From positions 69,541 through 133,540 of the forward strand of contig JAQWFB010000001.1 in assembly GCA_028704635.1 (NCBI GenBank): a stretch of 64,000 bases of DNA, in the 5' to 3' direction. A program made the position numbers and the translations under genes. Source of the stretch: Candidatus Shapirobacteria bacterium. GTDB lineage: Bacteria > Patescibacteriota > Microgenomatia > UBA12405. The notes below the pieces were generated by a model that saw nothing but the letters and a program-made list of their open reading frames with translations, did no database searches and was not told the origin of the DNA. Below, piece after piece: positions 1-38,740 of the stretch. Position 1 is the first letter of the stretch, and each line of letters starts with the position of its first letter.

Positions 1-150
1 GTTCATCAGAAACGTAAGTCACCACACCCTTTCCTACAGAAGAAATAATAATAACTGCCGCAATACCAATAATTATTCCCAACATAGTAAGCAATGATCT
101 TAGTTTATTTATTTTTAAAGAATCAATCGCTGATTTTAATGTTTCTTTTA
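1..150 (-). CDS. ABC transporter permease (MacB/FtsX-like), N-terminal part only, runs off window edge
   Basis: Reverse-strand translation from ATG at 148-150 gives MEIKETLKSAIDSLKINKLRSLLTMLGIIIGIAAVIIIISSVGKG, the typical N-terminal TM helix of MacB-type permeases. Immediately downstream of the ABC ATPase in the same operon. Confidence 0.6.
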
Positions 151-160
151 TCTCCATAAT

Positions 161-868
161 TTATGGTTTATTTTTAACATCTGAAACAATTTTTCCATCA
201 ATTATTTTTATTTTTCTTTTAGCAAAATTAGCAATCTCTTCCTCATGAGTAATAATAATAATGGTGTGACCTTGTTTATTTAAATCTGAAAGTATATTTA
301 TAATTTCTAAAGAAGCTTTACTATCAAGATTTCCTGTCGGCTCATCTGCCAATATCACTGATGGATTCATAATTAATGCTCTAGCAATGGCCACTCGCTG
401 TATTTGACCCCCAGAAATATGATTTGAAAGATTGTCAGCCTTATCAGCAATTCCCACACTCGAAAGCGCCTTCATAACCCTTTGGTTACGTTCTGATGGT
501 GGTATTCCGCCATAAAGCATCGGTCTTTCAACATTTTTAAAAACCGTCATTTTGGGAAGTAAATTAAAAAATTGAAATACAAATCCTATTTCTTTATTTC
601 TAATATCAGCCAATTCATCTTCACTGTAACTGCTAATATTTTTACCCTTAAAAAATTGAGAACCTTCTGTTGGATTATCTAATGCTCCCAATATATGCAT
701 TAAAGTCGATTTTCCACTGCCAGACGGACCAGTAATTGCCACAAACTCTCCTTCATTTATATCCAGGTCAATACCATGTAAAGCTTCATAAAAATCATTT
801 TTACCCATTGGGTATTTTTTAAATATTCCCCTAAGACTAATCAAAAGCGTATCGTTTTTTTTAATCAT
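161..868 (-). CDS. ABC transporter ATP-binding protein, MacB/LolD-type
   Basis: Walker A GPSGSGKST, ABC signature LSGGQIQRVAIARAL, Walker B ILADEPTGNLD, 235 aa. Confidence 0.9.
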   Translation of the reverse strand: MIKKNDTLLISLRGIFKKYPMGKNDFYEALHGIDLDINEGEFVAITGPSGSGKSTLMHILGALDNPTEGSQFFKGKNISSYSEDELADIRNKEIGFVFQFFNLLPKMTVFKNVERPMLYGGIPPSERNQRVMKALSSVGIADKADNLSNHISGGQIQRVAIARALIMNPSVILADEPTGNLDSKASLEIINILSDLNKQGHTIIIITHEEEIANFAKRKIKIIDGKIVSDVKNKP

Positions 869-1996
869 TTATATTTTAAACATACTGGCTTTTGGTGTTT
901 GTTCGCTGGTAAGAGAGACAATAATTTTTTGTCCTTCATTAACTCCTTCAATTATTTGTGTAAACTCTTTTCCTCTTACCCCAATTTTTATCGGTAGATA
1001 TTGAATATTACCTTTATTATCCAAAATTCTAACAGCTCGACCTTTTTGATATGGTTTAATCGCAGTATTAGGTACAGCCAAAACATCAGTCAGTTCGCTA
1101 GTAATAATGTCCGCGTCAGCCGTCATTCCCGATTTTATTTTTTCGTCAGCATCAATCACAGAAATATATAAATTATATTTTGAAACACCCTGAACAACAG
1201 TTCCTTTTTCGTCAAATCTTTTCACCACTCCTTTATAAGTTTTATTTTCAATGGCATCAAATTTAACATCTGCTTTTTGCCCCACCTCAATTTTATTAAT
1301 ATCGTTTTCACCAATAGTAATCAGTATTTCCGTAGGACCACCACTTTTAATAAACAACACCAGATCAGAAGGGGAAAGTAAACTATTAGCCGTAACCATA
1401 GTACCCTCAATTACTGCTAAGTTAGTAATAACCCCAGCAATTGGAGCCACTGCCGTCGAATTTAATAAAGAATTATATTTTGTCTGAGCAGAAACCAAAT
1501 TAGCCTTGGCGGTCAAAAGGGCATCGTAAGCATTGTCGTTAGCAACCTCAGCTGTAGTTCTAGTCTCTTTTTCTAAAAAAGTTTCATCACTATCATTATT
1601 TTTTACATCATCATGGACCCTGTCAACTGTAGCAGAAGAACTACGACGGTTATTTTCCGCCTGTTGTACTGCTGATTTAGCAGACTGATATAAAGCATAA
1701 CCTTCGGCTTTTTCCTGTGGAGTGGCCGTGCTTTTTACACTAAACAATTTTTGTTTTTCAATAACTTTATCACCATTTAAGACATAAACTTTATCAATAA
1801 TTCCTGTAGTTGAAGAATAGATATAAACACCCCCACTTGCAGTGACCGTACCAGATTCAGAAACTATACCTGTTATATTTTTTCTACCTACAGTTTCAAA
1901 AACATATTCATTTTTTTTATTTGAAAAAAAAATCACTCCAACCACAGTTAAAACTATCACCACCATCACAATAATAATCCAGATTGTTTTCTTCAC
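869..1996 (-). CDS. HlyD-family periplasmic adaptor (MacA-like membrane fusion protein)
   Basis: N-terminal TM helix, coiled-coil middle, beta-barrel C-terminal region. Tight operon with the ABC ATPase and permease. Confidence 0.7.
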   Translation of the reverse strand: MKKTIWIIIVMVVIVLTVVGVIFFSNKKNEYVFETVGRKNITGIVSESGTVTASGGVYIYSSTTGIIDKVYVLNGDKVIEKQKLFSVKSTATPQEKAEGYALYQSAKSAVQQAENNRRSSSATVDRVHDDVKNNDSDETFLEKETRTTAEVANDNAYDALLTAKANLVSAQTKYNSLLNSTAVAPIAGVITNLAVIEGTMVTANSLLSPSDLVLFIKSGGPTEILITIGENDINKIEVGQKADVKFDAIENKTYKGVVKRFDEKGTVVQGVSKYNLYISVIDADEKIKSGMTADADIITSELTDVLAVPNTAIKPYQKGRAVRILDNKGNIQYLPIKIGVRGKEFTQIIEGVNEGQKIIVSLTSEQTPKASMFKI

Positions 1997-2081
1997 TTTT
2001 TGTATTAAAACTAACTATTTAATTATACACATAGATATTATTAAAAATGATTTTTGTATCCTCAATGCTAAAATGTAAACA

Positions 2082-2294
2082 ATGAACCTAAGTAATAAAA
2101 GCTACACAATTTTTATTGGTACCAAAAATTTCACTGAAAAATATTACAAAGATAAAAATGGATGGTTAAAAATATCGGCAAAAGGAAATAAATTCCGAAT
2201 GACAGCTGAACAGGTCCTTAATCATTTATTACCCGCATTAGCTGATGTCAAGAAAAATTTGATTTTAAAAGTTGAACATCAAGATACCCCTTAA
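2082..2294 (+). CDS. hypothetical protein
   Basis: 70-aa ORF immediately upstream of, and abutting, the 2H phosphoesterase gene. Confidence 0.3.
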   Translation: MNLSNKSYTIFIGTKNFTEKYYKDKNGWLKISAKGNKFRMTAEQVLNHLLPALADVKKNLILKVEHQDTP

Positions 2295-2866
2295 TGAAAA
2301 CAACCTCTCATTTTTTAGGAATAAATTTAAATAATAAATTATTTGCCGGACTATTCAAATCTTTACAAAAATATTTAAAAGAAAATAATATTGAAGATGT
2401 AATTAGTCTCCAAAATCTATCATCCTTACACATAACGATTTATTATTTTGGTGAAAATTTGGACGATGCAACTTTATCTAATTTAAAAAATGATTTATTA
2501 ACCTTGAACAAAAAAGAAAATTTATTTCCCATTTTTATTGATGAAGTAAACTTTTTTATGCAAGAAGGACAAAATCAACTTTGTTATTTATATCCCTTAA
2601 AAGATAGAAAAATATTAGAAATAAATTCAATTTTAAAACTAAAATATCTTAACAAAATTGTCGATAATAATTATCCTAAATATGTTCCTCATATAACCAT
2701 TTTTAAAATAAAAAATTTCGATTTATACCAAAAACATCAAGAAAATATATTGGCCATAATAAAACATTATCTTAAAGGAATCCGACGAGATAACGCTTTT
2801 AAATCCTTTAATCTTTTTTCAGTTAATTCAACTTTATCCCCAGAAAAGTACACCGTAATTTTTTAA
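2294..2866 (+). CDS. 2H phosphoesterase superfamily protein (LigT/ThpR-like 2',3'-cyclic phosphodiesterase / 2'-5' RNA ligase)
   Basis: Two H-x-T-x motifs about 90 aa apart (LHITIYYF and PHITIFKI), 190 aa, typical of the 2H fold. Confidence 0.6.
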   Translation: MKTTSHFLGINLNNKLFAGLFKSLQKYLKENNIEDVISLQNLSSLHITIYYFGENLDDATLSNLKNDLLTLNKKENLFPIFIDEVNFFMQEGQNQLCYLYPLKDRKILEINSILKLKYLNKIVDNNYPKYVPHITIFKIKNFDLYQKHQENILAIIKHYLKGIRRDNAFKSFNLFSVNSTLSPEKYTVIF

Positions 2867-2892
2867 ATAAAAAATCCCCTAAAGTAGGGGAT
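2864..2892. terminator. intrinsic terminator hairpin, mainly for the minus-strand operon ending at 2947
   Basis: Stem atcccct / aggggat with 5-nt loop (2874-2892). On the minus strand it is followed by a T-run (A-run 2864-2873 on plus). Confidence 0.5.
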
Positions 2893-2946
2893 TAATGCGT
2901 GTTGCCCGTGCCGGTCGTGCCCAATTCTATCACTATAATCTGAACA

Positions 2947-3528
2947 CTAACTACCAATTTGTTCAACCCAATCCTGAACATAGGTTTTTATTCGATCAAT
3001 CTCATCGTCTGGTAGTAAACCAGAGTGCATAATAACATTTCTAGACATCTCAAGGTCATCAAACCTAGAAGTTAACCAAGCCTGATTAGGAACTAAATCA
3101 GAAAAATCTGACCAATTATTAACCACAATATCAGACAAATCACCAAAAGTTGTATAACCAATATCGTTCGTGGATCTTTGCGAATGATATTTATTTTTTA
3201 ACTCTTTATTTTTTAAGTCCAGTACTCTTTTTTTTACTCTATCAGGAACACATTGGTTCCACCAGTCTTTACCACATCTTTCAAATAATCGATCAACAAT
3301 TAATTCTCTCGCAGAATTTTCTAAACAATGGAAAACAATATAAACTGAAGACATTTTATTTGCATCAGAATTTATCCTGGGGTTAAAACTAAATTTTTCT
3401 ACATCAATTCTTGGATTAATTAATTTTGTTTCACTTTTTAATATTCCATCAGAAATAAACTTATCCAATTGACATTGGACAAGCATTCCATCCATTACCA
3501 TTTTCTTTAAATTAGAGATGGATTTCAT
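2947..3528 (-). CDS. HEPN-domain protein (Swt1-like HEPN, putative RNase)
   Basis: Rx4H motif SRNVIMH near the C-terminus, predicted all-alpha. Start overlaps the stop of the upstream gene (ATGA). Confidence 0.5.
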   Translation of the reverse strand: MKSISNLKKMVMDGMLVQCQLDKFISDGILKSETKLINPRIDVEKFSFNPRINSDANKMSSVYIVFHCLENSARELIVDRLFERCGKDWWNQCVPDRVKKRVLDLKNKELKNKYHSQRSTNDIGYTTFGDLSDIVVNNWSDFSDLVPNQAWLTSRFDDLEMSRNVIMHSGLLPDDEIDRIKTYVQDWVEQIGS

Positions 3529-4178
3529 TGTTCCATTAAGTTTTCTTTAATACTTTTAAAAATCGCATTATATATATTTATATCGGTAGTCGCAGGTAAA
3601 TGAATTTGAATATTATAATGAAAATCCACCATTTCTTGTTTTATATACGGCTGTTTCGTTTTTTTCTCTTCCTCTGTATTTCTATCTTTTTTCTCAGTCT
3701 CAATTGGAAAGAGTGAATCTCTTTTTTCAAAATTAGCTAGTGGTAATAAAGATTTAAAGGTATTTAGATAACGAACGACAGTAGCATCATCCTTACCAGT
3801 AACCCTACCAATAGCTCCTTTTATTTCTGAATCAACAGCCTGATTAATATTAACGTTTAAAGCAAATAAATCAGAATATAAATCTCTTATCCTATCAGCC
3901 AAAACAACACCAAAATCTCCGCCGTCCTTTAATCTATTAAAATACTCTGTAGGAGCTCCATCTTGTGTCAAAAACCCCAACCTCTTTATCAACGGAATAA
4001 AAGCTCTGTCGTTAGTGCTAGAAAAACCCAATCTTCTTAAAAAATCGACAGTAAATCTTTGAGGAATCTCTGCTGATTTAATCTTCTCAAAGATAGCAGG
4101 AATTTTGTTGTTAGATATCATGTAGGGATATTCCATCATAATTTTAAAAAATATTAAACTGACGACATGATACACCAA
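3525..4178 (-). CDS. hypothetical protein, translationally coupled partner of the HEPN protein
   Basis: 217-aa ORF with a 4-nt overlap with the downstream HEPN gene. No recognizable catalytic motif. Confidence 0.45.
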   Translation of the reverse strand: MVYHVVSLIFFKIMMEYPYMISNNKIPAIFEKIKSAEIPQRFTVDFLRRLGFSSTNDRAFIPLIKRLGFLTQDGAPTEYFNRLKDGGDFGVVLADRIRDLYSDLFALNVNINQAVDSEIKGAIGRVTGKDDATVVRYLNTFKSLLPLANFEKRDSLFPIETEKKDRNTEEEKKTKQPYIKQEMVDFHYNIQIHLPATTDINIYNAIFKSIKENLMEQ

Positions 4179-4305
4179 AACATAAAATTAATAAAATTTT
4201 TCTACAGGTTTAATCCGTTCGCTGTTTTCAAAGACAAAAATTCAATTTCAAAGGTAAAATAGGTAAAATATAGAAACATCGGACACCTCAAAGCGCTCAA
4301 TTTTG

Positions 4306-4376
4306 TTGCCCCGCATGGATTCGAACCACAATACTCAGCTCCAAAGGCTGATGTCCTACCATTAGACGACGGGGCA
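4306..4376 (-). tRNA. tRNA-Gln (anticodon TTG)
   Basis: Manual fold: acceptor TGCCCCG/CGGGGCA, anticodon stem TCAGC/GCTGA with loop CTTTGGA, T-loop TTCGAAT. Confidence 0.8.
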
Positions 4377-4472
4377 CTAAGACAGGGGAATCATACCAAA
4401 AAAGACACCTCAAAACAAGCCAGAAAACCTTTTTTTAATAAATTTTTAATAAAAAAAATCATAATTTAAAAG

Positions 4473-5645
4473 GTGAATAAGATAATAGAAACTGAAAGAA
4501 TTCCTATTAAACTTTGGCTTGATGATATTGATGATAAAACCTTACAACAAGCCAAAAATCTTGCTAATTTACCTTTCGCTTTTCACCATATCGCCATTAT
4601 GGCCGACGCCCATGTCGGTTACGGCATGCCCATCGGCGGTGTTCTTGCCACTAAAGGTATGATTATTCCCAATGCTGTCGGTGTCGATATTGGTTGCGGT
4701 ATGTGCGCCGTCAGAACTTCTTTAACCCAAATCGACAAAGAAAATCTTAAAAAAATATTAGGACAAATCAGAACAGTTATCCCTGTTGGTTTTGCTCATC
4801 AACGTAAAAAACAAGCTCTTTCAGAACTATCCAAAATAGATTCCAACACTCTTGTTTCAAAAGAATATGAACATGCTCAATACCAAGTCGGCACTCTTGG
4901 TGGCGGTAATCATTTTATTGAAATTCAAAAAGGTAGTGATGGTTTTATTTGGATTATGGTTCATTCTGGCTCTCGAAATTTAGGTAAAAAAGTTGCCGAT
5001 CATTACAACCGCTTAGCCATTGAATTCGACAAAAATCATTTCCCTAATTTTGACAAAAAAATACAACTCGCATTTTTACCAATCGATTCTGCCGAGGGTC
5101 AAAAGTATTTAAAAGAAATGCAATATTGTGTTGATTTTTCTCTAGCCAACAAGAAATTAATAATAAATCGAGTCATGGATATTTTCAAACAATTTTTAAT
5201 TCCCAAATTTACCAACAAAATAGATTTTGGAGAAATAATAAATATTGCCCATAATTACGCCTCTTTTGAAAACCATTTTGGAAAAGATGTAATCGTTCAT
5301 CGAAAAGGCGCCACTAAAGCCAGTGTCAACACCATTGGTATTATCCCAGGTTCTCAAGGTTCAAACAGTTTTATTGTCCAAGGACTTGGAAATCCAGAAT
5401 CTTTTGAATCTTGCAGTCATGGTGCTGGCCGAAAATTAGGCCGAGAACAAGCCAAAAAAACACTAAACTTAACCGAGGAAATAAAAAAATTAGAAAATTT
5501 AGGCGTGTTGCACACCATTCGAGGTGTAAGAGATTTAGAAGAAGCCGCAGGCGCCTATAAAGACATTGATATCGTCATGCAAAATCAAAAAGATTTAGTA
5601 AAAATATTAGTCGAATTAACTCCACTAGCTGTCGTAATAGGCTAA
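4473..5645 (+). CDS. rtcB: RNA-splicing ligase RtcB
   Basis: Motifs HVGYGMPIGGV, HSGSRNLG and SCSHGAGRKLGR, which include the metal-binding His and the HGAGR block of RtcB. 390 aa. Confidence 0.8.
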   Translation: MNKIIETERIPIKLWLDDIDDKTLQQAKNLANLPFAFHHIAIMADAHVGYGMPIGGVLATKGMIIPNAVGVDIGCGMCAVRTSLTQIDKENLKKILGQIRTVIPVGFAHQRKKQALSELSKIDSNTLVSKEYEHAQYQVGTLGGGNHFIEIQKGSDGFIWIMVHSGSRNLGKKVADHYNRLAIEFDKNHFPNFDKKIQLAFLPIDSAEGQKYLKEMQYCVDFSLANKKLIINRVMDIFKQFLIPKFTNKIDFGEIINIAHNYASFENHFGKDVIVHRKGATKASVNTIGIIPGSQGSNSFIVQGLGNPESFESCSHGAGRKLGREQAKKTLNLTEEIKKLENLGVLHTIRGVRDLEEAAGAYKDIDIVMQNQKDLVKILVELTPLAVVIG

Positions 5646-5649
5646 AATG

Positions 5650-5731
5650 TGCCGATGGAGGGACTTGAACCCCCACGCCTTGCGGCATACGCACCTCAAG
5701 CGTACGTGTATACCAATTTCACCACATCGGC
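5650..5731 (-). tRNA. tRNA-Leu (anticodon GAG)
   Basis: Manual fold: acceptor GCCGATG, anticodon loop TTGAGGT, long variable arm, 82 nt. Confidence 0.8.
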
Positions 5732-5807
5732 AAAAAAAATAAATACTAAAATATTCTTTTGAATATTTAGCAAAAATTAAATTTTAAAAGTAAATAATAA
5801 TTTTAAG

Positions 5808-5880
5808 TGGCCACTGAGGGACTCGGACCCCCGACATCTTCGATGTAAACGAAGCGCTCTACCAACTGAGCTAAGTGGCC
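5808..5880 (-). tRNA. tRNA-Val (anticodon TAC)
   Basis: Manual fold: GGCCACT acceptor, anticodon stem CTTCG/CGAAG, loop TTTACAT. Confidence 0.8.
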
Positions 5881-5901
5881 CTCAGGGTCTGAAATAAAAT
5901 G

Positions 5902-5974
5902 AGCGAGAGACGGGATTCGGACCCGCGACCTTCTCCTTGGCAAGGAGACGCTCCACCAATTGAGCTACTCTCGC
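5902..5974 (-). tRNA. tRNA-Gly (anticodon GCC)
   Basis: Manual fold: GCGAGAG acceptor, loop TTGCCAA, discriminator U. Confidence 0.8.
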
Positions 5975-5999
5975 ATATTTATATATTATATCAATTTTG

Positions 6000-6072
6000 T
6001 GCCGAAGGTAGGACTCGAACCTACATCCCAGGTTTTTCAGACCAGTGCCGTGACCATCTTGGCTACTTCGGC
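6000..6072 (-). tRNA. tRNA-Phe (anticodon GAA), slightly atypical
   Basis: Manual fold: GCCGAAG acceptor, anticodon loop CTGAAAA, T-arm GTAGG/CCTAC. The anticodon stem has one U-U mismatch and the D-arm is unusual. Confidence 0.55.
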
Positions 6073-6122
6073 TAGAAGTGTCCTTATTATAAAGGAATAA
6101 GGTCAAAAACTAAAGAATTAAG

Positions 6123-6203
6123 TGCCAAGGGTGGGACTTGAACCCACATGTCTTGCGACACACCGTTCTGAGCGATGCTTGTATACCATTTCAACACCTT
6201 GGC
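6123..6203 (-). tRNA. tRNA-Leu (anticodon CAG)
   Basis: Manual fold: GCCAAGG acceptor, anticodon stem CATCG/CGGTG (one G-U), loop CTCAGAA, long variable arm. Confidence 0.8.
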
Positions 6204-6252: not shown

Positions 6253-6708
6253 ATGAAACAAGCCACACTTTTATTTTTACTAAAAGACAATCAGATTCTT
6301 TTAGCCATGAAAAAACGTGGTTTTGGCCAAGGTCGCTGGAATGGTGTTGGTGGTAAACCAGAAGAAAACGAAAACATATTAGACACTGCTGTTCGTGAAA
6401 CCCAAGAAGAAATTAGTGTTATTCCTAAAAATATTTCTCAAGTCGCCACTCTGGATTTTTATTTCCAAAATAAATCAGAATGGAATCAACAGGTTTTAGT
6501 TTTTATCACCAATGATTGGGAAGGGGAGCCATCTGAGTCAGAAGAAATGAAACCCCAATGGTTTGAAACCAACAATCTTCCTTTTGATTCTATGTGGCCC
6601 GACGATCCATTTTGGTTACCTTCAATTTTATCTGGTAAAAAAATTCAAGCCGAATTTACTTTTGGTGATAACGATATTGTTTTAGACAAAAAAATAAATG
6701 AAATCTAA
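6253..6708 (+). CDS. NUDIX hydrolase (MutT-like)
   Basis: Nudix box GGKPEENENILDTAVRETQEEISV, which fits Gx5Ex7REUxEExGU. Confidence 0.85.
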   Translation: MKQATLLFLLKDNQILLAMKKRGFGQGRWNGVGGKPEENENILDTAVRETQEEISVIPKNISQVATLDFYFQNKSEWNQQVLVFITNDWEGEPSESEEMKPQWFETNNLPFDSMWPDDPFWLPSILSGKKIQAEFTFGDNDIVLDKKINEI

Positions 6709-7507
6709 TATTTCCAAAAAAGACATCGAATCAGGTAAAGAAATAATTGAAAAATTATCAAAATTAAATCCAAAATTATTACCCCATCACTTAAAAGATA
6801 TTATTTCTGATTACCAAAAATTTTTACCTCATCCCCAAAAATACGGTCTTTGGTCATCAAATAAAACCAAACATCCTAAATTTAGCCAAAAATATGACAA
6901 AATTCTACTTTTACTTAACGGTGTCACCGCCGGCGGTAAAGATGCTATCCATCAAGAAATGGAAAAATTAGCTCCAAATTTGTTTTCTAAAGCAGTCACT
7001 GCCACTTCTCGTCCACCTCGTGAAGGCGAAGTTCACGGTCAAGATTATTATTTTTTCGAAAACCATAAAATTTTTAGACAATCACTTAAAAATGGTGAAT
7101 TTCTTGAATATTATCAAAGAGGAGAAACTTATTACGGTCTTCCCAAAAAAAGTTTGGAAAATTCTATTAATCATCCCAGTCCAATCATTTATTCTCAACT
7201 TGAAATGAGTGGTTGGTCAAAAGCCGAAAAATACATTTCCGCTAATCATCCTAATATTTTTATTTTAAAAATTTTTGTTATTCCAGATATGAATTTTTCC
7301 GATTACAAAAATTGGTTAATTGAAAAAAGAAGTGATAATGATTTAGAATCTCGTCTTAACAAGACTGGTTGGGAATTAAAAAAAGCCCCAAAAAAATCCG
7401 ATTTTATTATTATCAACCATATTGAAGAAAATACTGATTCTCTCACTCGCACCGCCCAAACTATTATCAATCAAATCACTGATTTATTAAAAAACCCAAT
7501 TAAATAA
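6698..7507 (+). CDS. guanylate kinase-like domain protein with non-canonical P-loop
   Basis: TSRPPREGEVHGQDYYF matches the guanylate kinase TTRPPRxGExDGxDYxF block. The P-loop is GVTAGGKD (Ser/Thr replaced by Asp). Extra N- and C-terminal extensions. Confidence 0.5.
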   Translation: MKSNISKKDIESGKEIIEKLSKLNPKLLPHHLKDIISDYQKFLPHPQKYGLWSSNKTKHPKFSQKYDKILLLLNGVTAGGKDAIHQEMEKLAPNLFSKAVTATSRPPREGEVHGQDYYFFENHKIFRQSLKNGEFLEYYQRGETYYGLPKKSLENSINHPSPIIYSQLEMSGWSKAEKYISANHPNIFILKIFVIPDMNFSDYKNWLIEKRSDNDLESRLNKTGWELKKAPKKSDFIIINHIEENTDSLTRTAQTIINQITDLLKNPIK

Positions 7508-7954
7508 TTAATTAATCTTTTTACCGTGTTCAATTAAAGCTTCTATTCTTTGCCAAGTATAACCAGGTAATTCATCTTTCATTTTTACCATTTCACTTAA
7601 AGTTAACCATCTAATTTCTTCCTGATCTTCCAATGGTTGCGCTTCACCTGATTTGTAATAACACAAAAAGGTCATCATAATTACATGGTGACCGCTAATT
7701 CGAACAAAGCCATCGTTATAAATAAATTCAATATGATCTTCTATCTCTAATCCAACCTCTTCCATTATTTCCCGTTTTAAGGCATTTTCGATAATATCTT
7801 TTCCAATTTCATCATCTAATTTTCCACCAGGAAAACTCCATTGACCTCCAGCCTGTAGATCATTAAAACTTCTCCTCGCTAATAAATATTCATCACCCTT
7901 TTTAACTATTCCTGTAACTGCAACTACATGAGTTGTAATGTCATTTTCTTCCAT
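7508..7954 (-). CDS. NUDIX hydrolase
   Basis: Nudix box GGKLDDEIGKDIIENALKREIMEEVGL. Confidence 0.85.
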   Translation of the reverse strand: MEENDITTHVVAVTGIVKKGDEYLLARRSFNDLQAGGQWSFPGGKLDDEIGKDIIENALKREIMEEVGLEIEDHIEFIYNDGFVRISGHHVIMMTFLCYYKSGEAQPLEDQEEIRWLTLSEMVKMKDELPGYTWQRIEALIEHGKKIN

Positions 7955-8298
7955 TATTTTTTAGTTTTTTTAACCAAATTATTTTCCGGATTTTTATGAT
8001 TATATTTTCCCAAAATTTCCTTACTCACCATTTCAAAAGCTTCCTCAATATCCACTCCTAGTTGATTGGCCAAACGACAAGTTCCAAAAAATAAATCACC
8101 AATTCCATCTTTAAAAATCATTTTATTTTTATCAACAAATTCAATTCTTTCCTCTTCATTTTTATAACGAAGATATTGAGACATCTCAATTAACTCTTCG
8201 TGTAAATGGTCAAATTTATCAATATTTGGCGTATCTTTCCAGTTATTTCTTTTAGAAAAATCTTTTACCAATTTTTGAGCCTCTTTAATGGTTTTCAT
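7954..8298 (-). CDS. MazG-like nucleotide pyrophosphohydrolase (all-alpha NTP-PPase)
   Basis: EELIEMSQ ... GDLFFGTCRLANQLGVDIEEAFE, the EExxE/D metal-binding helix pattern of the MazG/HisE fold. 114 aa, start abuts the preceding Nudix gene. Confidence 0.6.
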   Translation of the reverse strand: MKTIKEAQKLVKDFSKRNNWKDTPNIDKFDHLHEELIEMSQYLRYKNEEERIEFVDKNKMIFKDGIGDLFFGTCRLANQLGVDIEEAFEMVSKEILGKYNHKNPENNLVKKTKK

Positions 8299-8397: not shown

Positions 8398-8832
8398 TTA
8401 ATACTCAATAAAATTAACATCTAAAATTATCTGCGAACATAAACTTCCTTTAGAAGCTGCTTCCTTTAAAAGATTTAAATCCATTGTCCATTTTTGATCA
8501 ATATATTTTGTATTTACCGTTTTAGCTTTAAATACTGACGGGGCTCTACCAACTAACTTTGATTTAATATCCATTAATATAAAATCGTAATCACCTCTAT
8601 CAACTCTTTTAATCCCCATAAAACCAACTGGTTCTATTTCAGTGTTAAGCTTTTCCTTTCCTACGCGTCTTACTGCATCCTCTGGTAACTCATTACCTTT
8701 AATAGTAACTGCCGGTAAACCCCAAACATTCGGCAATTTATCATCATCCTCTGGTCTTTTAACAATTAAGAACTCTTTATCATTTTCAGGATTTATTAAA
8801 AAAATTGCAACCGAAAATTTTGTGTCTTTCAT
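8398..8832 (-). CDS. divergent Nudix-like protein
   Basis: Degenerate Nudix-box-like segment GNELPEDAVRRVGKEKLNTEI. Sits with two canonical Nudix genes and MazG. Confidence 0.35.
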   Translation of the reverse strand: MKDTKFSVAIFLINPENDKEFLIVKRPEDDDKLPNVWGLPAVTIKGNELPEDAVRRVGKEKLNTEIEPVGFMGIKRVDRGDYDFILMDIKSKLVGRAPSVFKAKTVNTKYIDQKWTMDLNLLKEAASKGSLCSQIILDVNFIEY

Positions 8833-31103: not shown

Positions 31104-31240
31104 AATTCAGTATAACAAAATTTCTCTCCGCTAATTATATCTTTATTTCAAAAAATGAAATTTTAGTCAAAATTTCAGATTTAATTCCTGATATTCTATA
31201 CGTAGAAGATATCTAAAGTTTGATATATAACTAAACAATA

Positions 31241-32254
31241 ATGAATAGAAACTCATTGAACCAAATAATTAAGGACAGAATATTTGCCTCAAACGGAAAA
31301 ATATTTCAGGAATTAATTTGGAAAATTTTAATAAAAGTCTATCCAGATTTACAAACCCCTAAAATGCAACACGATCTTGGAAATGATGGCTATTCTACTA
31401 AAGAAAAAACATTTTTTGCTTGTTATGCGATCGAAGGAAATAAATACGACAACACCGAAACCATAAACAAAATTAACGACGATTATGATAAATTTGTAGA
31501 TAATTGGAAAAATAGAGGTTCTTTTAATAAATGGGTGTTTATAACAAAAGATGATTTAATGGGAATACCACATCAAACTATTGTAAACTTAAATTCAAAT
31601 AATGATGGTATTCTTAAAGAACTTTGGGGATTACCTCAGTTATTAGATAACTGCAATAATATTTCCGATAAAGACATACGAGTAATTTTCAACATTGAAG
31701 AAGATCCTAAATATATCTGTAACGGCGGAAATCAATTTAATCAACAAACGGACGGAAGTATTACTAATATATTTCAAAATTCAGAAAAACAAACTGACTT
31801 AGAAAGAACAATAATCGAAGAAATTTTTGAAAATGTTTTAAGTAAATTGAGTCCCTCCACATTACAAGAAAAAGTCTCAGACAAAAAACATTTAAATATA
31901 ACCAGTAAAATAGCATTAAATTTTGTCGATGAAGCAGACAGAGAAGATGTTGGACAATATTTTTCGTATGCCTTGACTAAAATTGATGAGATAGAGAGGA
32001 GAATTCAATTAGAGGATTCCGAAACTCAAAAAGATATCGAATCATATATCTACGGTCTTTACAAGCAATTTACTAGAAAAAATATTAGTAATATTGAAAT
32101 ATTAGAGTCATTATTTAGGGAAATAATTCCTCCAAACAAATCTCACGACCCCAAATATGTGAATCTATCAAGAGCATTCGTTCTGCTATTTTTTGATGAT
32201 TGTACAATCTTTAAAAAGACAAAGGAGGAAATAAAAAATGCTGTTACCAACTAA
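31241..32254 (+). CDS. hypothetical protein, candidate effector component of a Lamassu/ABC-3C-like system
   Basis: First gene of a tightly overlapping three-gene operon. N-terminal ~130 aa carries a possible nuclease-like core (HDLGNDGY...CYAIEGNK). Confidence 0.35.
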   Translation: MNRNSLNQIIKDRIFASNGKIFQELIWKILIKVYPDLQTPKMQHDLGNDGYSTKEKTFFACYAIEGNKYDNTETINKINDDYDKFVDNWKNRGSFNKWVFITKDDLMGIPHQTIVNLNSNNDGILKELWGLPQLLDNCNNISDKDIRVIFNIEEDPKYICNGGNQFNQQTDGSITNIFQNSEKQTDLERTIIEEIFENVLSKLSPSTLQEKVSDKKHLNITSKIALNFVDEADREDVGQYFSYALTKIDEIERRIQLEDSETQKDIESYIYGLYKQFTRKNISNIEILESLFREIIPPNKSHDPKYVNLSRAFVLLFFDDCTIFKKTKEEIKNAVTN

Positions 32255-32468
32255 ACATGAAATTTTAAAAAATAACGAGTTGGTTATCGGGGCAAAAATA
32301 ATTAATTTGTTATCAAAAAAGACATCAGTTAATATTACTGACTTATTTGAAGAAACTGTAAAGATAGACTCAATATCTCTTAATCAATTTTATGATACAT
32401 TAACGTTTTTATGGTTAGCTGATATTGTTATATTAGAGAAATTCAAAGTTCAACTTTTAAAACGATAA
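32238..32468 (+). CDS. small helical protein, candidate middle component (LmuC-like)
   Basis: 76 aa. Overlaps the upstream gene by 17 nt and ends 1 nt before the ATPase gene. Confidence 0.35.
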   Translation: MLLPTKHEILKNNELVIGAKIINLLSKKTSVNITDLFEETVKIDSISLNQFYDTLTFLWLADIVILEKFKVQLLKR

Positions 32469-32469
32469 T

Positions 32470-34230
32470 ATGTTTTTACAAAAATTATATTCTGAGCCTA
32501 ATGGTCTATTTAAAACAATTGAGTTTAAAGATGGAGTTAATTTTATCTTTGGAAAAAAGGAAAAGACATCCGATCCGAAAGAATCACTAAATGGGATTGG
32601 TAAATCATTAACCCTCGATTTTTTAGATTTTTGTCTACTCTCATCATTCCAAAAAAATCATTGTCCTCGACTATTTGATGCCTCTCAATATTTATTGGGA
32701 TACCAAATATGTTTAGAGTTTGAAATTGATGATTCAAACTACATCATTAAACGTAATATTGAAACTTCTAGTAAAATAATCATTGGGCCGATTGGAAAAG
32801 AAAAGGAATTATCTTTAAAAGAGGCTAAAGAATATCTTTGTGACCTAATTTTCAAAAGAAATTATGGTGGTTATTATTCAAATAGTTGGCTAAGAAAATT
32901 ATTACCGTTTTTTATAAAAATACAGAAACAAAAAAGCGACAGTTTTACCGACCCGATTAAATACATAAATGAAAGTTCCGTAGCTGAATTACTACAATAT
33001 CACTTTTTTCTATTAGATATTGACAATAAATTGTCTAAATATAATTTTGAACTTCAAAATAATATCAAACAAAAAGAACCTGCACTAAAAGAAGTAAAAA
33101 GTATTGTGGAAGACACCTATGAACTACGTGATATCTCCGAAGCTTCAAATAAGATAGATATATTGAATAAGGATATTGATAAGTTGGAAAAAGCAATTTC
33201 TAACTTTAAATTATCAGAGGAGTATTTTGACGTTGAGAATGATGCCAACGGACTTACTAAAAAAATTAAGGATATTTGGTTTAATAATTTTTCTGATAGA
33301 AAAAAGATATCCTCTTATGAGGATAGTTTTAAATTGGATACTGATATTGATACTAAAAAAATTCATAATATCTACAAACAGTTTAATGAATTACTTGCAG
33401 GTAATATCCAAAAAACCCTAGAAGAGGCGGTTCAATTTAGAATAGATTTAAGTAAATCAAGAAAAGAATTCATTCTTTCTGAGATTGATGAATTAAAAAA
33501 AATTATTACAAAAAGAGAAATAGAGGTAGAAGAGCTTGAAAACAAAAGAGCAAAACTATTTACATTTTTGTCCTCAAAAAAAGCTATTGAGGATTTATCT
33601 GAAGCATACCTTGCTTTAACTCAAAAGAAAGATTCCTCAAAGGATTTAGAGGGTAAAATAAGGCTGTATACTGATTTGTCGAAAGAATTAGCTGAACTAC
33701 GTGTTGAAGAGAAAAAAGTAGAAAAAGATTTTATTGGTTTTACAGAAGAATTCAACGGATCAATTTCAAAATTCAGAGGTATATTTTCAGATATATACAA
33801 CGCAGTCTATCCTCAAAATAAAGACGAATCTATTCTTTCGATAAAATCTGCTCCAAATACAAACGCCAAACTTGAGTTTAATATCACTTTTCCAAGTATG
33901 TACTCAAAAGGTAGAAATCAAGGAAGAACATTAATTTATGACTTAGCTATGTTGATTTATATGGAAACAAATAAAATTAGAGGACCGAGATTTCTTGTTC
34001 ATGATGGTATCTTTGATGGAATGGATAAAGCTCATTTTGTTTCTTTATATGAATACCTTGAAAATCTTAAGACACACTTAAGGTTTCAATATATTATTAC
34101 TATGAACGAAGAGGGAACACTGAACGATAACTTTGGTAATACTGATGCTGTTAGTCCGGAAAAAATTGCCATCGAAGCTATTGTACTTTTAACTCCAAAC
34201 AATAAACTATTGGGAAAAGATTTTAATTAA
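32470..34230 (+). CDS. SMC/ABC-type ATPase with long coiled-coil insert (LmuB / ABC-3C ATPase-like)
   Basis: N-terminal P-loop LNGIGKSL. ~300-aa K/E-rich coiled-coil middle. C-terminal RFLVHDGIFDGMD (Walker B/D-loop-like, with DG rather than DE). Confidence 0.55.
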   Translation: MFLQKLYSEPNGLFKTIEFKDGVNFIFGKKEKTSDPKESLNGIGKSLTLDFLDFCLLSSFQKNHCPRLFDASQYLLGYQICLEFEIDDSNYIIKRNIETSSKIIIGPIGKEKELSLKEAKEYLCDLIFKRNYGGYYSNSWLRKLLPFFIKIQKQKSDSFTDPIKYINESSVAELLQYHFFLLDIDNKLSKYNFELQNNIKQKEPALKEVKSIVEDTYELRDISEASNKIDILNKDIDKLEKAISNFKLSEEYFDVENDANGLTKKIKDIWFNNFSDRKKISSYEDSFKLDTDIDTKKIHNIYKQFNELLAGNIQKTLEEAVQFRIDLSKSRKEFILSEIDELKKIITKREIEVEELENKRAKLFTFLSSKKAIEDLSEAYLALTQKKDSSKDLEGKIRLYTDLSKELAELRVEEKKVEKDFIGFTEEFNGSISKFRGIFSDIYNAVYPQNKDESILSIKSAPNTNAKLEFNITFPSMYSKGRNQGRTLIYDLAMLIYMETNKIRGPRFLVHDGIFDGMDKAHFVSLYEYLENLKTHLRFQYIITMNEEGTLNDNFGNTDAVSPEKIAIEAIVLLTPNNKLLGKDFN

Positions 34231-34295
34231 AGATTTTAATAACAGTTTTCAATACAATCTATTTCATAAGTTGACTTTTTATTTAGTATTTTAAA

Positions 34296-34440
34296 GGGGT
34301 TGCACCCCTCATTTAACAAGGGTTTCCGTTTCACTCCAATGAACTGCTCCGCCTGCTGGCGGATTGCCCTTGTTAAATTTCACCCTGCTTTTTAAATCAC
34401 TTTTAATTTGGGCAGGCAGGTATCACTACCTACCCAAATT
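34296..34440 (+). other. multi-hairpin structured element upstream of the DUF2958 gene (candidate 5' leader RNA or ssDNA initiation/oriT-like site)
   Basis: Hairpin ggggt/acccc (34296-34310). 10-bp stem ttaacaaggg/cccttgttaa enclosing an inner ccgcc-tgct-ggcgg hairpin (34313-34376). Hairpin ttgggcagg/cctacccaa (34409-34437). SD aaggag precedes ATG 34468. Confidence 0.3.
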
Positions 34441-34467
34441 TAAAAATTATAAAAAGGAGAAAAACAA

Positions 34468-34770
34468 ATGAAATTGCTAACAGTCGAGCTTATAAACACC
34501 TTTAAAAGAGTGGGGAGACAAGAAGAAGTTAAAGATCCCTTAGTTATTGCTAAGTTTTTTAATCCCACTGGTGCTGGGACTTGGTATGCCACTGAATACG
34601 AACCAGAATCCAAAATGTTTTTTGGTTATGTCTCTATCTTTAGAGATGATAATGACGAATGGGGTTATTTTTCCCTTGAGGAATTAGAAAGTATTAGAGG
34701 CTATTTTGGCTTAGGTATTGAACGTGATCTTTATTTCACCTCAAAACCATTTAGTCAGATTAAGTATTAA
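34468..34770 (+). CDS. DUF2958-family protein (plasmid/ICE-associated)
   Basis: EEVKDPLVIAKFFNPTGAGTWYATEYEPESKMFFGYVSI...EWGYFSLEELESIRG matches the conserved DUF2958 core. Confidence 0.65.
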   Translation: MKLLTVELINTFKRVGRQEEVKDPLVIAKFFNPTGAGTWYATEYEPESKMFFGYVSIFRDDNDEWGYFSLEELESIRGYFGLGIERDLYFTSKPFSQIKY

Positions 34771-34795
34771 TTATTTATTAAATATTAATTAAAAA

Positions 34796-34987
34796 ATGAT
34801 TAGAAAATTACCAATATTCAAAGGTTATACAGTTGATTTAAGGCTTCAAGAATTTAGAAAAATAGAGGCTGATAAATTACCTGAGTTTATCCCGTTATTA
34901 AGCGATAAAGGTGCCCGTCTGTTTTGGGAATTTAAACAGACTCATGCCGGTCAAAAAGAATTAGATCACTATTTAGGCCGTAAATAA
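34796..34987 (+). CDS. hypothetical protein
   Basis: 63-aa ORF. Confidence 0.3.
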   Translation: MIRKLPIFKGYTVDLRLQEFRKIEADKLPEFIPLLSDKGARLFWEFKQTHAGQKELDHYLGRK

Positions 34988-35018
34988 TAGAAAAATAAGA
35001 AAAACACCCCAGATGAAA

Positions 35019-35789
35019 TTAATTTTTCTCTGGGGTATTTTTTTCTTCAAAAGCACTAACCCATCTATTTGATGGTTCAATGGATAGATAAAAATCAATT
35101 TCTTCTTGATCTTCTTCTTCCATAATTCTAGGGATAAAAGAATGTAAATACTTTTTAATTGAATCATTGGGGCAGAGGATTAGAATTTTTGGAAAAGGAT
35201 GTTTAGTAACTTCTTGCCAAGTGTTGGCATTGTAATATTCTAAATATTGTTTAATTTTAGCCCGGATAACAAATCTGGGTGTGTCTTCGTCAATGATTTC
35301 CAAAAAATAGCGTTTGATTTTTTTGTTTTCCTTTGTGGCAATATAAGCATCTGGGTGTTTGTCCGGCAAATAATCGTAATTTATTAAATCAATTTTAGTA
35401 TAGAAAAATATTTCTTCAGGCAGATGAGATTTTTTAAGACTTAAATAAAAATCAGCTGATAATAAACAATGGTTAATAAATTTTTGAGTTCTCTTTTTCT
35501 CTCCATAAATTCGTTTCATTAATTTGGCATCTTTTTCCAGTTGATCAATTAAATAATTTTTACTTTTGCTTTTTAAAAAATAAATTGCTGGTTTAATATT
35601 GTCACCTAATTTATTTGAGTAGTTTCTACCAATTATTTTTTTATCATTTAGATTTTTTAACCAGATATTAATCTGACTTATTTTTTTATGATTCAGTAGT
35701 TGTTGTATTTGTAATCTGTTTAAGAATCGAAATCTGTAGAGCAGTATTATTATTTCTAATTGTTTTTTAGTTATGTTGTTTTTATCCAT
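35019..35789 (-). CDS. replication-relaxation (Replic_Relax) family protein
   Basis: N-terminal wHTH-like LTKKQLEIIILLYRFRFLNRLQIQQLL, typical of the family found on Gram-positive mobile elements. Confidence 0.5.
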   Translation of the reverse strand: MDKNNITKKQLEIIILLYRFRFLNRLQIQQLLNHKKISQINIWLKNLNDKKIIGRNYSNKLGDNIKPAIYFLKSKSKNYLIDQLEKDAKLMKRIYGEKKRTQKFINHCLLSADFYLSLKKSHLPEEIFFYTKIDLINYDYLPDKHPDAYIATKENKKIKRYFLEIIDEDTPRFVIRAKIKQYLEYYNANTWQEVTKHPFPKILILCPNDSIKKYLHSFIPRIMEEEDQEEIDFYLSIEPSNRWVSAFEEKNTPEKN

Positions 35790-35926
35790 TTTATTTTTTT
35801 ATTCTAGAAACCATCAAGAGAGTTTATCTTTATTCACTCTCTTACTCTATAAGAGTAAAGAGACTAAATTTAAAATTGATTATCCCTAAATTCAGGATAA
35901 ATATTAAAAATTTTTAATGTAGCGGG

Positions 35927-38740
35927 CTACACTAAAATTTCTTTCTTTTTAATTGACTTCTTTAATGGTTTTTTAGCTGTTTTAATTTTGTTTTTAACCT
36001 TTACTTTAGTCATTTCTTTTATTTCTTTTTTGTAAGTGATGGCATAATTTTTTCTTGATATCTCAATTAATTTTTGTAGTCTTTCCGGATTTCGATCTAA
36101 AACAATCGGGATAGTTTCTCCCGAAAATGGTTCTTCTGGTTCCACGGCTGATAATTTCATGTAAAACCTGAAACGAGGTAGATTACCAATATCTCCCTTT
36201 TTCACATAAGGGCTAAATTGGTCTAACATTAACTCTTCATCAATTGGACTAGCGGTTCTAAAACAAATAATAGTCCCAGTATTAGCTAAGATAACATTGA
36301 CCATATTCCGATCTGATTGTTGGGCGGTTGATTGTTCGGCAATGGTCAATCGTAATCCAAACTTTCTTCCCCCAGATAATAATTTAGTAAATGAAGTGGT
36401 AGCAAAATTTTGAAATTCATCCACAAATAAATAGAAGGGTTTTCGATTGATTATCGGAGTTCTGACTCGTCTCATGAAGGCTTGTTGTAGTTTGGCAATA
36501 ATCGTTGTTCCTAAAAGTTGGGAAGTATCCTCACCTAGTTTTCCTTCAGCTAAATTACAAATTAAGATTTTTCCAGAAGAAATAATTTCATCAAAATTAA
36601 TAGTTGATTTTGGTTGTTCCAATATTCTTTTAGCTGTAGGGGAGAATAAGAATCGACCAATTTTAGCCGTCACTCCAGAAACCATTTTAACTGCCTGGTA
36701 ACTTCCAGCTTTCCCAAATTCGTTTAACCAAAAGTTTTTTAAATTGGCGTCTTCTAATTTTGTCGTGATACTTTTTTGATAGTTTGGATTATTAAGCAAA
36801 TCATAAACTGTAAAAATAGTGGCGTCCTTAACGGTAAAGGCAGTATAAATGGTATTCCTCAAAATGTATTCAATTCGATGGGAATCAGTATTTTCATCTT
36901 TAGAAAATATTCGTCTAAAAACTGAAATGACACTTTCACAAACTAATTCTTTTTCTTGTTCTAATTCATCATCACTAAGGCCTGATTTAAGTTCTAATAA
37001 ATTGATCCCAATTGGATGACTAATATCAAAAGGATTTAAATAAATACAATCATCAAAGCGACTTTTGGGAACAGAATATAATAAATCTTCGGCAAGATCC
37101 CCATGAGGATCAATCACCGCCACTCCTCGGCCTTTTTGAATATCATCTTTAGCCATGTGAAAGATAATGGTGGTTTTACCGGAACCAGTTTGACCAATAG
37201 CATAGACATGACGAGAACGGTCATCATCAGTTAACCCAATGTCACTAACCACATTGGCATATTTATTCTTGCCAAAGACCACATCAAAATTGGAATTGTT
37301 TTTAACTGACAGAGGTGAGGGTAGTTCGGAACTATGACTAGTCACCATTCCTTCGGTTTTGGTGGTGACATTGTAAGGAAAATGATAAAGATCACTTAAT
37401 TCTGAAATTGATAAAATTGGATTTTGATTAAGGATTGAATTTGTCGATAAAGATTTTTGTTTAAATTGTTTTATCTGATTTTTAAAATTATTAAAAATAT
37501 AATTTTTAGAGACTAATGATTGATATGGACTACTTAATTGTCCTAAGGAAGAGATTAAACCATTAATTCTGGTTTTATTTTCTTCATCTTTATGAGTGAT
37601 TACTAATAATCTGATGGAAGTTTCAAATAATGACCGGTCAATTTTATCTTTAATAATTCTAGCTAGTTCTTGTTCATAAGGATTTAAAATTTCTTTAGGA
37701 GAGGCAGATGATGTTTGAAAAATTGGCACTGATTTACCACTAGTATCAATTATGGCCGGAATAATACTGATCACAAACAAAAACAGAAGATGAACTATTT
37801 TTCCAATACCTTTAACAAAAAACCAAATAATAGATATTCCTGGTAAAGCTACTAATTTTTGTAAAGCATTTTTTTGAACAACTTCAGTTAGTGGTAATCC
37901 TTGGTATAGTCGTGTTCTTAACTCTTTAATTTCGGACATTATCCTTTGATGAAAGACATTCATGATTGGGCTAACAATTATTTGAAAAGAAATTAATTCA
38001 TCTTTTTTAAGATTAGTCATATTTCCCGTTAGATAAGAGATAGGATCATTTTCTGAAAGTGTTTTTTGAGTTTGGAGTGGTAGGGCAAAATGACTCGATA
38101 ATTTTAATTCAATCAATCTAACTGATTCAGTTGTTTGATTAATTTTATTAATATCCAGATAATCGTTAATTTCCTTAATTTTGATTCCGGGTAAATAGGA
38201 TAAAAGATTATGTTTAATAATTTCTATAAATTTTGGATCAGCTGAGAGTAAATAACGGATACCTTCATTTTTAGTGGAGACAATTTCTAATGAGTATTCA
38301 TTTTTTCTTTGAGTTATTCGATCTCTAAAACTTACCTGTCGAGATAGGGTATGGAGGAGAGTATACAATTCTTCGGTCGCATAAGCTGATTTACTAGTAT
38401 CGGCTGGAAATATTAATTGAATCATTTTCTTACCAGTTCTTTTTTGGGAAAACTGTTTAAAAATCATTGGTACTACTGTTTTAATAATTCCTAAAATTAT
38501 TTTTATTAATATAATCAGAGAAATTATCCCCAAAATTGGTCCCACTACTAAAATGATCGTCATCCACATTGGAGATAACGTTGATATTAAGGGAGTTAAC
38601 CAGTTATAGAAAGTAAGTTTCCAAGAAATAGGTAAAGGCAGTGACAGAATTAAATAGAGGGAAAAGACATGAGTATTGGATAGAGTGTGTTGTTGAATCT
38701 GATGTAATAACTGAAGTTGTTGAACATCAACTGAAGTCAT
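35927..38740 (-). CDS. VirD4/TraG/FtsK-HerA-type coupling ATPase with N-terminal TM region
   Basis: Walker A GQTGSGKTT and Walker B FYLFVDEFQNF in the C-terminal half. TM helices in the N-terminal third. 937 aa. Confidence 0.55.
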   Translation of the reverse strand: MTSVDVQQLQLLHQIQQHTLSNTHVFSLYLILSLPLPISWKLTFYNWLTPLISTLSPMWMTIILVVGPILGIISLIILIKIILGIIKTVVPMIFKQFSQKRTGKKMIQLIFPADTSKSAYATEELYTLLHTLSRQVSFRDRITQRKNEYSLEIVSTKNEGIRYLLSADPKFIEIIKHNLLSYLPGIKIKEINDYLDINKINQTTESVRLIELKLSSHFALPLQTQKTLSENDPISYLTGNMTNLKKDELISFQIIVSPIMNVFHQRIMSEIKELRTRLYQGLPLTEVVQKNALQKLVALPGISIIWFFVKGIGKIVHLLFLFVISIIPAIIDTSGKSVPIFQTSSASPKEILNPYEQELARIIKDKIDRSLFETSIRLLVITHKDEENKTRINGLISSLGQLSSPYQSLVSKNYIFNNFKNQIKQFKQKSLSTNSILNQNPILSISELSDLYHFPYNVTTKTEGMVTSHSSELPSPLSVKNNSNFDVVFGKNKYANVVSDIGLTDDDRSRHVYAIGQTGSGKTTIIFHMAKDDIQKGRGVAVIDPHGDLAEDLLYSVPKSRFDDCIYLNPFDISHPIGINLLELKSGLSDDELEQEKELVCESVISVFRRIFSKDENTDSHRIEYILRNTIYTAFTVKDATIFTVYDLLNNPNYQKSITTKLEDANLKNFWLNEFGKAGSYQAVKMVSGVTAKIGRFLFSPTAKRILEQPKSTINFDEIISSGKILICNLAEGKLGEDTSQLLGTTIIAKLQQAFMRRVRTPIINRKPFYLFVDEFQNFATTSFTKLLSGGRKFGLRLTIAEQSTAQQSDRNMVNVILANTGTIICFRTASPIDEELMLDQFSPYVKKGDIGNLPRFRFYMKLSAVEPEEPFSGETIPIVLDRNPERLQKLIEISRKNYAITYKKEIKEMTKVKVKNKIKTAKKPLKKSIKKKEILV

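Follow-up and report, generated by a model that had tools for sequence, protein, structure and literature searches.

A DUF5343-HEPN gene pair of the PDC-M34 family beside RtcB, a 2H phosphoesterase and tRNA genes in Candidatus Shapirobacteria: a probable autonomous cassette with incidental neighbours

Introduction

The DNA considered here, "the window", is a stretch of 64,000 nucleotides from contig JAQWFB010000001.1 of a Candidatus Shapirobacteria bacterium (assembly GCA_028704635.1), a member of the candidate phyla radiation (CPR). Close to its start, in the order 70-amino-acid (aa) open reading frame (ORF), 2H phosphoesterase, HEPN, DUF5343, tRNA-Gln, RtcB RNA ligase and five further tRNAs, a minus-strand pair of genes for a predicted HEPN nuclease and a DUF5343 protein lies between two genes for enzymes of RNA chemistry. 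This raises the question as to whether the whole region is one RNA damage/repair system, as the original prediction from the DNA letters alone proposed, or whether the pair is a unit of its own. Our analysis suggests that positions 2947-4139 (minus strand) are probably an autonomous HEPN cassette of the defence-candidate family PDC-M34 and that its neighbours are incidental. Of our confidence in this reading, roughly half goes to a real function against phages, rather than to a toxin-antitoxin module that is purely selfish.

The gene pair and its family

Both proteins of the pair match PADLOC-DB profiles of the same catalogued system over nearly their full lengths. The DUF5343 protein matches PDC-M34A (PDLC04589) with an E-value of 1.1e-66 (residues 15-215 on positions 3-208 of a 208-position profile), and the HEPN protein matches PDC-M34B (PDLC04592) with an E-value of 3.6e-65 (residues 1-192 on positions 1-191 of 192). 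The two genes adjoin on the same strand in A-then-B order, and the minus-strand ATGA overlap of the original prediction is present. The features of the cassette and its immediate borders are as follows.

2947-3528, minus strand: Swt1-type HEPN gene (PDC-M34B), 193 aa, predicted endoribonuclease effector (Pfam PF18731, PADLOC)
3025-3045, minus strand: codons for S162-RNVIM-H168, the Rx4H motif, with E160 just upstream
3525-3528, minus strand: ATGA stop/start overlap from DUF5343 to HEPN, coupling translation
3525-4139, minus strand: DUF5343 gene (PDC-M34A), about 204 aa from its ATG (Pfam PF17278, PADLOC, public gene calls)
4140-4304, minus strand: 165-bp spacer from the tRNA-Gln 3' end to the DUF5343 start, presumed promoter/operator region
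2873-2893, minus strand: terminator-like hairpin (AATCCCCTACTTTAGGGGATT, then a T-run) 3' of the HEPN stop, from a consensus scan

Judged by sequence, the pair has every feature that defines PDC-M34 and the Swt1-type HEPN family. The hairpin may close the two-gene operon, as a pattern match only. A promoter consensus scan of the spacer gave no match exceeding the shuffle background, and the spacer shows no conservation with that of a Saccharibacteria locus (L001). PDC-M34 belongs to a set of 145 phage-defence candidates proposed by "guilt-by-embedding" (Payne et al. 2024, bioRxiv 10.1101/2024.01.29.577857), which lie inside type I restriction-modification, BREX or DISARM loci.

When one genome of each GTDB species was scanned, 264 relatives of the pair emerged, and the best 80 of these 264 loci were inspected, with genes called simply as longest ORFs. 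The 80 loci mostly share about 50% identity and come from Saccharibacteria, Paceibacteria, Alpha-, Beta- and Gammaproteobacteria, Clostridia and Bacteroidota, and also from Acidobacteriota, Planctomycetota, Gemmatimonadota, Ignavibacteria and Spirochaetota. Such a patchy distribution across phyla is expected of a horizontally moving module. In 78 of the 80 loci DUF5343 lies directly upstream of HEPN on the same strand, and in the two loci without it the HEPN gene is frameshifted. Spacing falls between -4 and +17 nt in 75 of 79 pairs, with the identical 4-nt overlap in 17. These data support the view that the upstream gene is an obligate partner of HEPN and that the pair is a coupled two-gene module, as had been predicted.

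We then asked what else accompanies the pair. Clustering of 777 ORFs within 5 kb revealed no conserved third gene, the largest neighbour family being present in just 7 of 78 loci, and no Pfam or PADLOC family was seen more than twice among 144 direct neighbours. The pair is thus a self-sufficient two-gene cassette. The direct neighbours are housekeeping genes mixed with type I restriction-modification subunits, GmrSD and AriA/AbiL-like ATPases. In a Zambryskibacteria locus (L158), for example, the pair is flanked by GmrSD, an EcoRI-type methylase and T5orf172, with a large serine recombinase on the other side. A separate observation concerns a locus whose DUF5343 is 66% identical to that of the window (L157), where three genes of the 23S_rRNA_IVP family surround a pair with a truncated HEPN (L157:5314-9689).

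The HEPN protein and its DUF5343 partner

The distal gene was originally flagged by its Rx4H motif, SRNVIMH, and a profile search of 2947-3528 bears this out. HEPN_Swt1 (PF18731) is matched with an E-value of 2.4e-12 and 47.6 bits against a cut-off of 27.5, over profile positions 2-115 of 115. The motif occupies aa 162-168 (window 3025-3045), and all 31 HEPN homologues aligned (27-77% identity) share E160, R163, N164 and H168. Of 79 genomic copies, 77 retain the full ExxRNxxxH signature. An AlphaFold2 (AF2) model is all-helical, with a predicted local distance difference test score (pLDDT) of 83.8. By profile and motif, then, the distal gene encodes a HEPN domain with an intact catalytic signature, for which RNase activity is predicted. 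HEPN is frameshifted or truncated in five loci (L040, L064, L069, L070 and L157); DUF5343 is seemingly intact in L040, L069 and L157, and none is detectable in L064 and L070. Such damaged copies would fit a toxic gene that is inactivated now and then. Some distant Swt1-type HEPN proteins (P0096-P0099 and P0101; 238-277 aa) form a subgroup that carries an N-terminal extension of about 40-60 residues (LAQTNRQVLDALKEKLG...) that is absent in the window protein.

The partner had been described as a 217-aa protein of unrecognized family, and both points need revision. Searches of DUF families identify it as Pfam DUF5343 (PF17278; E-value 5e-44), the family behind PDC-M34A. The 217-aa figure comes from a mechanical ORF that starts too far upstream, at TTG 4178. 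Profile matches begin at its residue 15-18, and public gene callers place the start at an ATG near 4139, giving 203-204 aa, so that this ATG is almost certainly the true start. The AF2 model (pLDDT 82.9) predicts a helical N-domain (residues ~1-135), followed by a linker (residues 142-174) that is disordered, charged and variable. Within the N-domain, a helix-helix-helix-hairpin pattern makes residues 13-63 a possible winged helix. The C-terminal 30-mer (FHYNIQIHLPATTDI.VYNAIFKSLKENL) is nearly invariant, and mean column identity is 59% for DUF5343 vs. 42% for HEPN. The family comprises 2,455 clusters at 50% identity (E-values up to 1e-3), and among the best 150 of these nearly all members are stand-alone proteins of about 200-215 aa. 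DUF5343 was not found in PLSDB plasmids, in GenBank phages or in a pattern scan of IMG/VR viral contigs, and a PHROGs search returned nothing meaningful.

RtcB, the 2H phosphoesterase and the tRNA genes

The genes around the cassette, which had suggested a repair island in the first place, are the following.

2082-2294, plus strand: orphan ORF, 70 aa, whose stop overlaps the 2H start (TAATG)
2294-2866, plus strand: 2H phosphoesterase, 190 aa, a neighbour convergent to the cassette and outside it
4305-4376, minus strand: tRNA-Gln(UUG), a neighbour outside the cassette and the point at which contig L082 diverges (see below)
4473-5645, plus strand: RtcB RNA ligase, a neighbour divergent from the cassette, with tRNA-Gln between
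5649-6203, minus strand: five tRNAs (Leu-GAG, Val-UAC, Gly-GCC, Phe-GAA, Leu-CAG), neighbours only

As individual genes, RtcB, the 2H gene and the six tRNAs were correctly recognised from the start. RtcB matches PF01139 with an E-value of 7.4e-108 and has its HGAGR motif at aa 316-320 (window 5418-5432); because it scores under the NCBIfam equivalog cut-offs, it can be assigned to the family but to no named equivalog. The 2H protein has the two expected HxT motifs, H46-I-T48 (2429-2437) and H133-I-T135 (2690-2698). Both HIT motifs are conserved in its 12 homologues, which are all that could be detected, and both histidines are invariant in 13 orthologues. It scores just over the cut-off for LigT_PEase (PF02834; 26.9 vs. 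23.3 bits) and under that for the ThpR equivalog TIGR02258 (44.5 vs. 65.7 bits). By these profiles the protein belongs to the 2H superfamily, with the ThpR equivalog level not reached. All six adjacent tRNA genes are likewise present. The region lies in DNA of low GC content (~32% across the window), and a contig from another Candidatus Shapirobacteria metagenome-assembled genome (MAG), GCA_028681165.1, is identical to window positions 1-5976.

Do these genes work together? In an integrated RNA damage/repair island, HEPN would cut tRNA or rRNA, with the enzymes on either side, RtcB and 2H, as its dedicated partners for repair or end healing. The chemistry is compatible with this, since the 2',3'-cyclic-phosphate and 5'-OH ends left by HEPN enzymes are what RtcB joins (PMC11090510; PMC3710099). 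The three gene units and six tRNAs also fall within 4 kb, and three near-identical contigs keep the pair together with 2H and the 70-aa ORF. The original prediction itself held that the idea would fail if the pair were never linked to rtcB elsewhere, and no such linkage was seen. Within ±10 kb, phmmer found RtcB, which is conserved enough for detection, in 0 of the 80 pair loci. Conversely, profile hidden Markov models of HEPN and DUF5343 found the pair in 0 of 65 metagenomic RtcB loci (43-69% identity, 376 kb). The window 2H family was likewise found in 0 of the 80 pair loci, by a single-sequence phmmer search, too insensitive for distant 2H proteins. Among the homologues closest to the pair (60-77% identity), none has RtcB or 2H as a neighbour: the contigs of five closer relatives carry neither gene, and contigs without them include P0003, P0005 and L001 (HEPN 69, 64 and 60% identical, respectively) as well as L157 (DUF5343 66% identical).

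A still closer comparison is provided by L082, a 3.2-kb contig of MAG GCA_028689945.1 that is 99.9% identical to window positions 1837-4318. It departs exactly at the 3' end of tRNA-Gln into unrelated sequence with a 149-aa gene, no tRNA and no RtcB. The break, at window 4305-4318 and L082:1-760, is a strain-level rearrangement or an assembly breakpoint at the tRNA. Because L082 diverges there, adjacency to RtcB is not fixed even in near-identical strains. On the other side of the cassette, a GNAT acetyltransferase directly precedes the 2H orthologues (58-84% identity) in four of four related contigs (L086, L087, L088 and L090), none of which has HEPN, DUF5343 or RtcB beside 2H. The content 3' of 2H in these relatives is variable (serine recombinases, a histidine phosphatase, uncharacterised genes). 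These contexts indicate that 2H is lineage-resident and is followed by a variable spot. In the window, the 70-aa orphan ORF stands where the GNAT gene precedes 2H in relatives (as at L086:7437-7985). This ORF has no family match in profile searches (Pfam, NCBIfam-type, PADLOC), and as it also has no tblastx similarity to the GNAT gene, it was ruled out as a GNAT remnant.

The arrangement of the region also argues against an island. The 2H gene, the pair and RtcB form three transcription units on alternating strands; 2H converges on the pair, with the terminator-like hairpin separating them, and RtcB points away from it on the far side of a tRNA gene. The flanks of RtcB are tRNA genes, and neither an RtcA nor an RtcR gene lies beside it in the window. 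Remus, Jacewicz and Shuman reportedly found in 2014 that a cyclic phosphate opened by a ThpR-type 2H enzyme ends up as a 2'-phosphate, and RtcB does not accept such ends. With this product, 2H and RtcB would not form one pathway.

A functional link to the tRNA genes is likewise unsupported. Of the 80 loci, 10 have tRNA genes at distances of up to 1.5 kb from the pair, and the isoacceptors are diverse, which speaks for tRNA-proximal integration hot spots and not for a functional connection. In the Saccharibacteria locus L001, the pair lies just downstream of a tRNA-Gln (CUG; L001:9194-9267), which is 111 bp upstream of the DUF5343 frame. The presence of tRNA-Gln beside the pair in two CPR classes may reflect a shared 3'-flank preference or coincidence. 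A tRNA-Gln travelling with the cassette was considered and rejected: the L001 and window tRNAs share generic conservation only, their spacers are unrelated and the isoacceptors near the pair are diverse. Separately, an exact 11-nt direct repeat, GACACCTCAAA, lies on either side of the window tRNA-Gln (4282-4292 and 4404-4414); it could be chance (~0.3 such repeats would be expected across the scanned stretch) or mark past recombination at tRNA-Gln.

With no linkage elsewhere, the separate 2H contexts and the L082 breakpoint, the island is best explained as a chance juxtaposition, and we consider a dedicated damage/repair system very improbable. The proposed functional co-localisation of the nuclease module with repair enzymes and tRNAs thus finds no support; nothing indicates that the clustering goes beyond chance, and it is unrepeated in the other genomes examined. 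From their sequence contexts, RtcB, 2H and the tRNAs look like resident housekeeping neighbours whose adjacency to the cassette is coincidental. The cassette itself appears to be horizontally mobile and to have landed in the variable stretch between the resident 2H gene and tRNA-Gln.

The location among tRNA genes could also suggest that the pair is itself a housekeeping RNA-processing system for tRNA or rRNA maturation in a reduced genome, comparable to eukaryotic Swt1 and Las1, two cases of HEPN domains put to work in RNA processing (PMC3710099). We regard this as the most improbable of the explanations considered, given the extremely patchy distribution with ~50% identity between unrelated phyla, a genomic context that differs locus by locus, the existence of pseudogenised copies and the absence of the pair in all four related genomes whose 2H locus was sampled.

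A proposed mode of action

How might such a cassette work? By established HEPN biology (PMC3710099), the HEPN protein would be a metal-independent endoRNase and, like characterised members of the superfamily, probably a dimer. Its cuts in cellular and/or phage RNA would leave 2',3'-cyclic-phosphate and 5'-OH ends (PMC11090510) and lead to translation arrest. DUF5343, encoded upstream, would be made in stoichiometric excess and would silence the RNase and/or sense a trigger. Its architecture suggests that it probably binds HEPN through the flexible linker and the invariant strand-helix peptide at its C-terminus, and the possibly winged-helix N-domain could bind nucleic acid or another ligand, in operator binding and/or trigger sensing. 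Phage infection or loss of DUF5343 would then release the RNase, with an abortive-infection or toxin-antitoxin-like outcome.

More specifically, and tentatively, DUF5343 could be the sensor subunit of a widespread two-component HEPN abortive-infection system and not a passive antitoxin. Its N-domain would recognise a phage-derived nucleic acid or protein, and the C-terminal peptide would gate the HEPN active site. The pair would then be one of few portable immune modules passing between CPR bacteria with reduced genomes (Shapirobacteria, Saccharibacteria, Paceibacteria, Zambryskibacteria), and in the window genome the resident RtcB could incidentally permit recovery after activation.

The pair could instead be a plain type II toxin-antitoxin system, in which DUF5343 is a DNA-binding, autoregulating antitoxin that neutralises HEPN via its C-terminal tail. 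The module would have no dedicated anti-phage role and would persist selfishly or stabilise the surrounding variable region. The partner-first order, ATGA overlap and tight spacing are classic for type II systems, the DUF5343 layout of N-domain, disordered linker and conserved C-terminal peptide is typical of their antitoxins, and the HEPN pseudogenes in five loci would fit as well. However, at ~200 aa DUF5343 is larger and more conserved than the HEPN toxin, which is atypical for a simple labile antitoxin. The pair is also missing from the plasmid, phage and viral-contig collections searched, where addiction modules are common, and the family was found by its embedding in restriction-modification, BREX and DISARM loci, with some loci of our set among defence genes. 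We therefore consider a plain toxin-antitoxin system unlikely, noting that toxin-antitoxin and abortive-infection roles are not mutually exclusive.

Several points weigh against an autonomous, mobile defence cassette and against our account of its parts; the departure of DUF5343 from a simple labile antitoxin, described above, is one of them. The 145 PDC systems, PDC-M34 included, were published as untested predictions (bioRxiv 10.1101/2024.01.29.577857), and a literature search found no paper mentioning DUF5343, PDC-M34 or HEPN_Swt1. The majority of the direct neighbours of the pair are non-defence genes, which would suit a toxin-antitoxin system. No attachment-site or target-duplication repeats surround the cassette, only short repeats at chance level, and the GC content of the pair, overall and at third codon positions (GC3), resembles that of its neighbours, giving no compositional sign of recent transfer. 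Finally, Foldseek comparison of the AF2 models with the PDB gave no significant match for HEPN, and DUF5343 has no PDB match by sequence or by fold, so that the HEPN fold assignment rests on profile and motif, and the winged-helix reading on the secondary-structure pattern.

On balance we favour the autonomous PDC-M34 cassette. The locus reveals no new RNA damage/repair island, and that part of the original prediction can be dropped. It shows that, in the variable regions near tRNA genes of small genomes, chance can assemble a neighbourhood of plausible chemistry, with a nuclease, a ligase, a phosphoesterase and tRNAs. What remains of value is a compact instance of PDC-M34, a predicted HEPN-based defence candidate, in the CPR, where few immune systems are recognised; the family, already catalogued, is present in several CPR lineages. 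The strict two-gene autonomy, the invariant ExxRNxxxH signature and the conservation of DUF5343, notably of its C-terminal 30-mer, provide handles for characterising it.

Other features of the window

Two further regions of the window deserve mention. Three NUDIX hydrolase genes (6253-6708, 7508-7954 and 8398-8832) cluster together with genes for a guanylate-kinase-like protein (6698-7507) and with an unassigned 114-aa ORF (7954-8298), an unusual density of nucleotide-hydrolase genes that is bounded by tRNA genes on both sides. Further on, ~31200-41200 is an apparent integrated mobile element, over which (32-40 kb) the GC skew switches sign. It encodes a DUF2326 ATPase matching the PADLOC candidate PDC-M68B (32470-34230; E-value 2.5e-74), DUF2958 (34468-34770), Replic_Relax (35019-35789), a TraG/TrwB-like coupling protein (35927-38740) and a large serine recombinase (39403-41124) whose ORF runs into a tRNA-Leu (41026-41110). 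A tRNA-Lys (41126-41199) lies just past the recombinase.

Comparison with known systems

In the contest between PrrC/EcoprrI and phage T4 Pnkp/Rnl1, nuclease and repair enzymes are on opposing sides, host vs. phage. Together with RtcBA/RtcR, this case is the conceptual precedent for the original prediction. Ribotoxin damage leaves 2',3'-cyclic-phosphate and 5'-OH ends, and a ligase repairs them (PMC11090510). Whereas rtcBA with RtcR is a conserved regulated operon, RtcB in the window is a lone gene in a separate unit with no conserved linkage to a nuclease. Abi2/AbiD/AbiF and other abortive-infection proteins share the HEPN clade of the window protein (Anantharaman et al. 2013, PMC3710099) but are single proteins or fusions with AAA+, transmembrane or wHTH-REase domains. 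That survey places bacterial HEPN proteins of the Swt1/Abi2 clade, predicted to be active, in restriction-modification and abortive-infection contexts, and does not describe the pairing with DUF5343. The HEPN-MNT type II/VII toxin-antitoxin systems (for example Shewanella SO_3166/SO_3165) resemble the pair in being two-gene operons of a small stand-alone HEPN with Rx4-6H and a co-transcribed partner. In contrast to these, the partner gene comes first in the window, its DUF5343 product has no MNT signature in a Pfam search, and the HEPN protein falls in the Swt1/Abi2 clade, not in the nucleotidyltransferase (NT)-associated clade (classification of PMC3710099). The closest counterpart is PDC-M34 itself. 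The window copy differs in setting, being in a CPR bacterium next to tRNA-Gln and not embedded in a restriction-modification, BREX or DISARM locus, but it has the same two profiles end to end, with the same adjacency, strand and A-then-B order, and structurally there is no difference.

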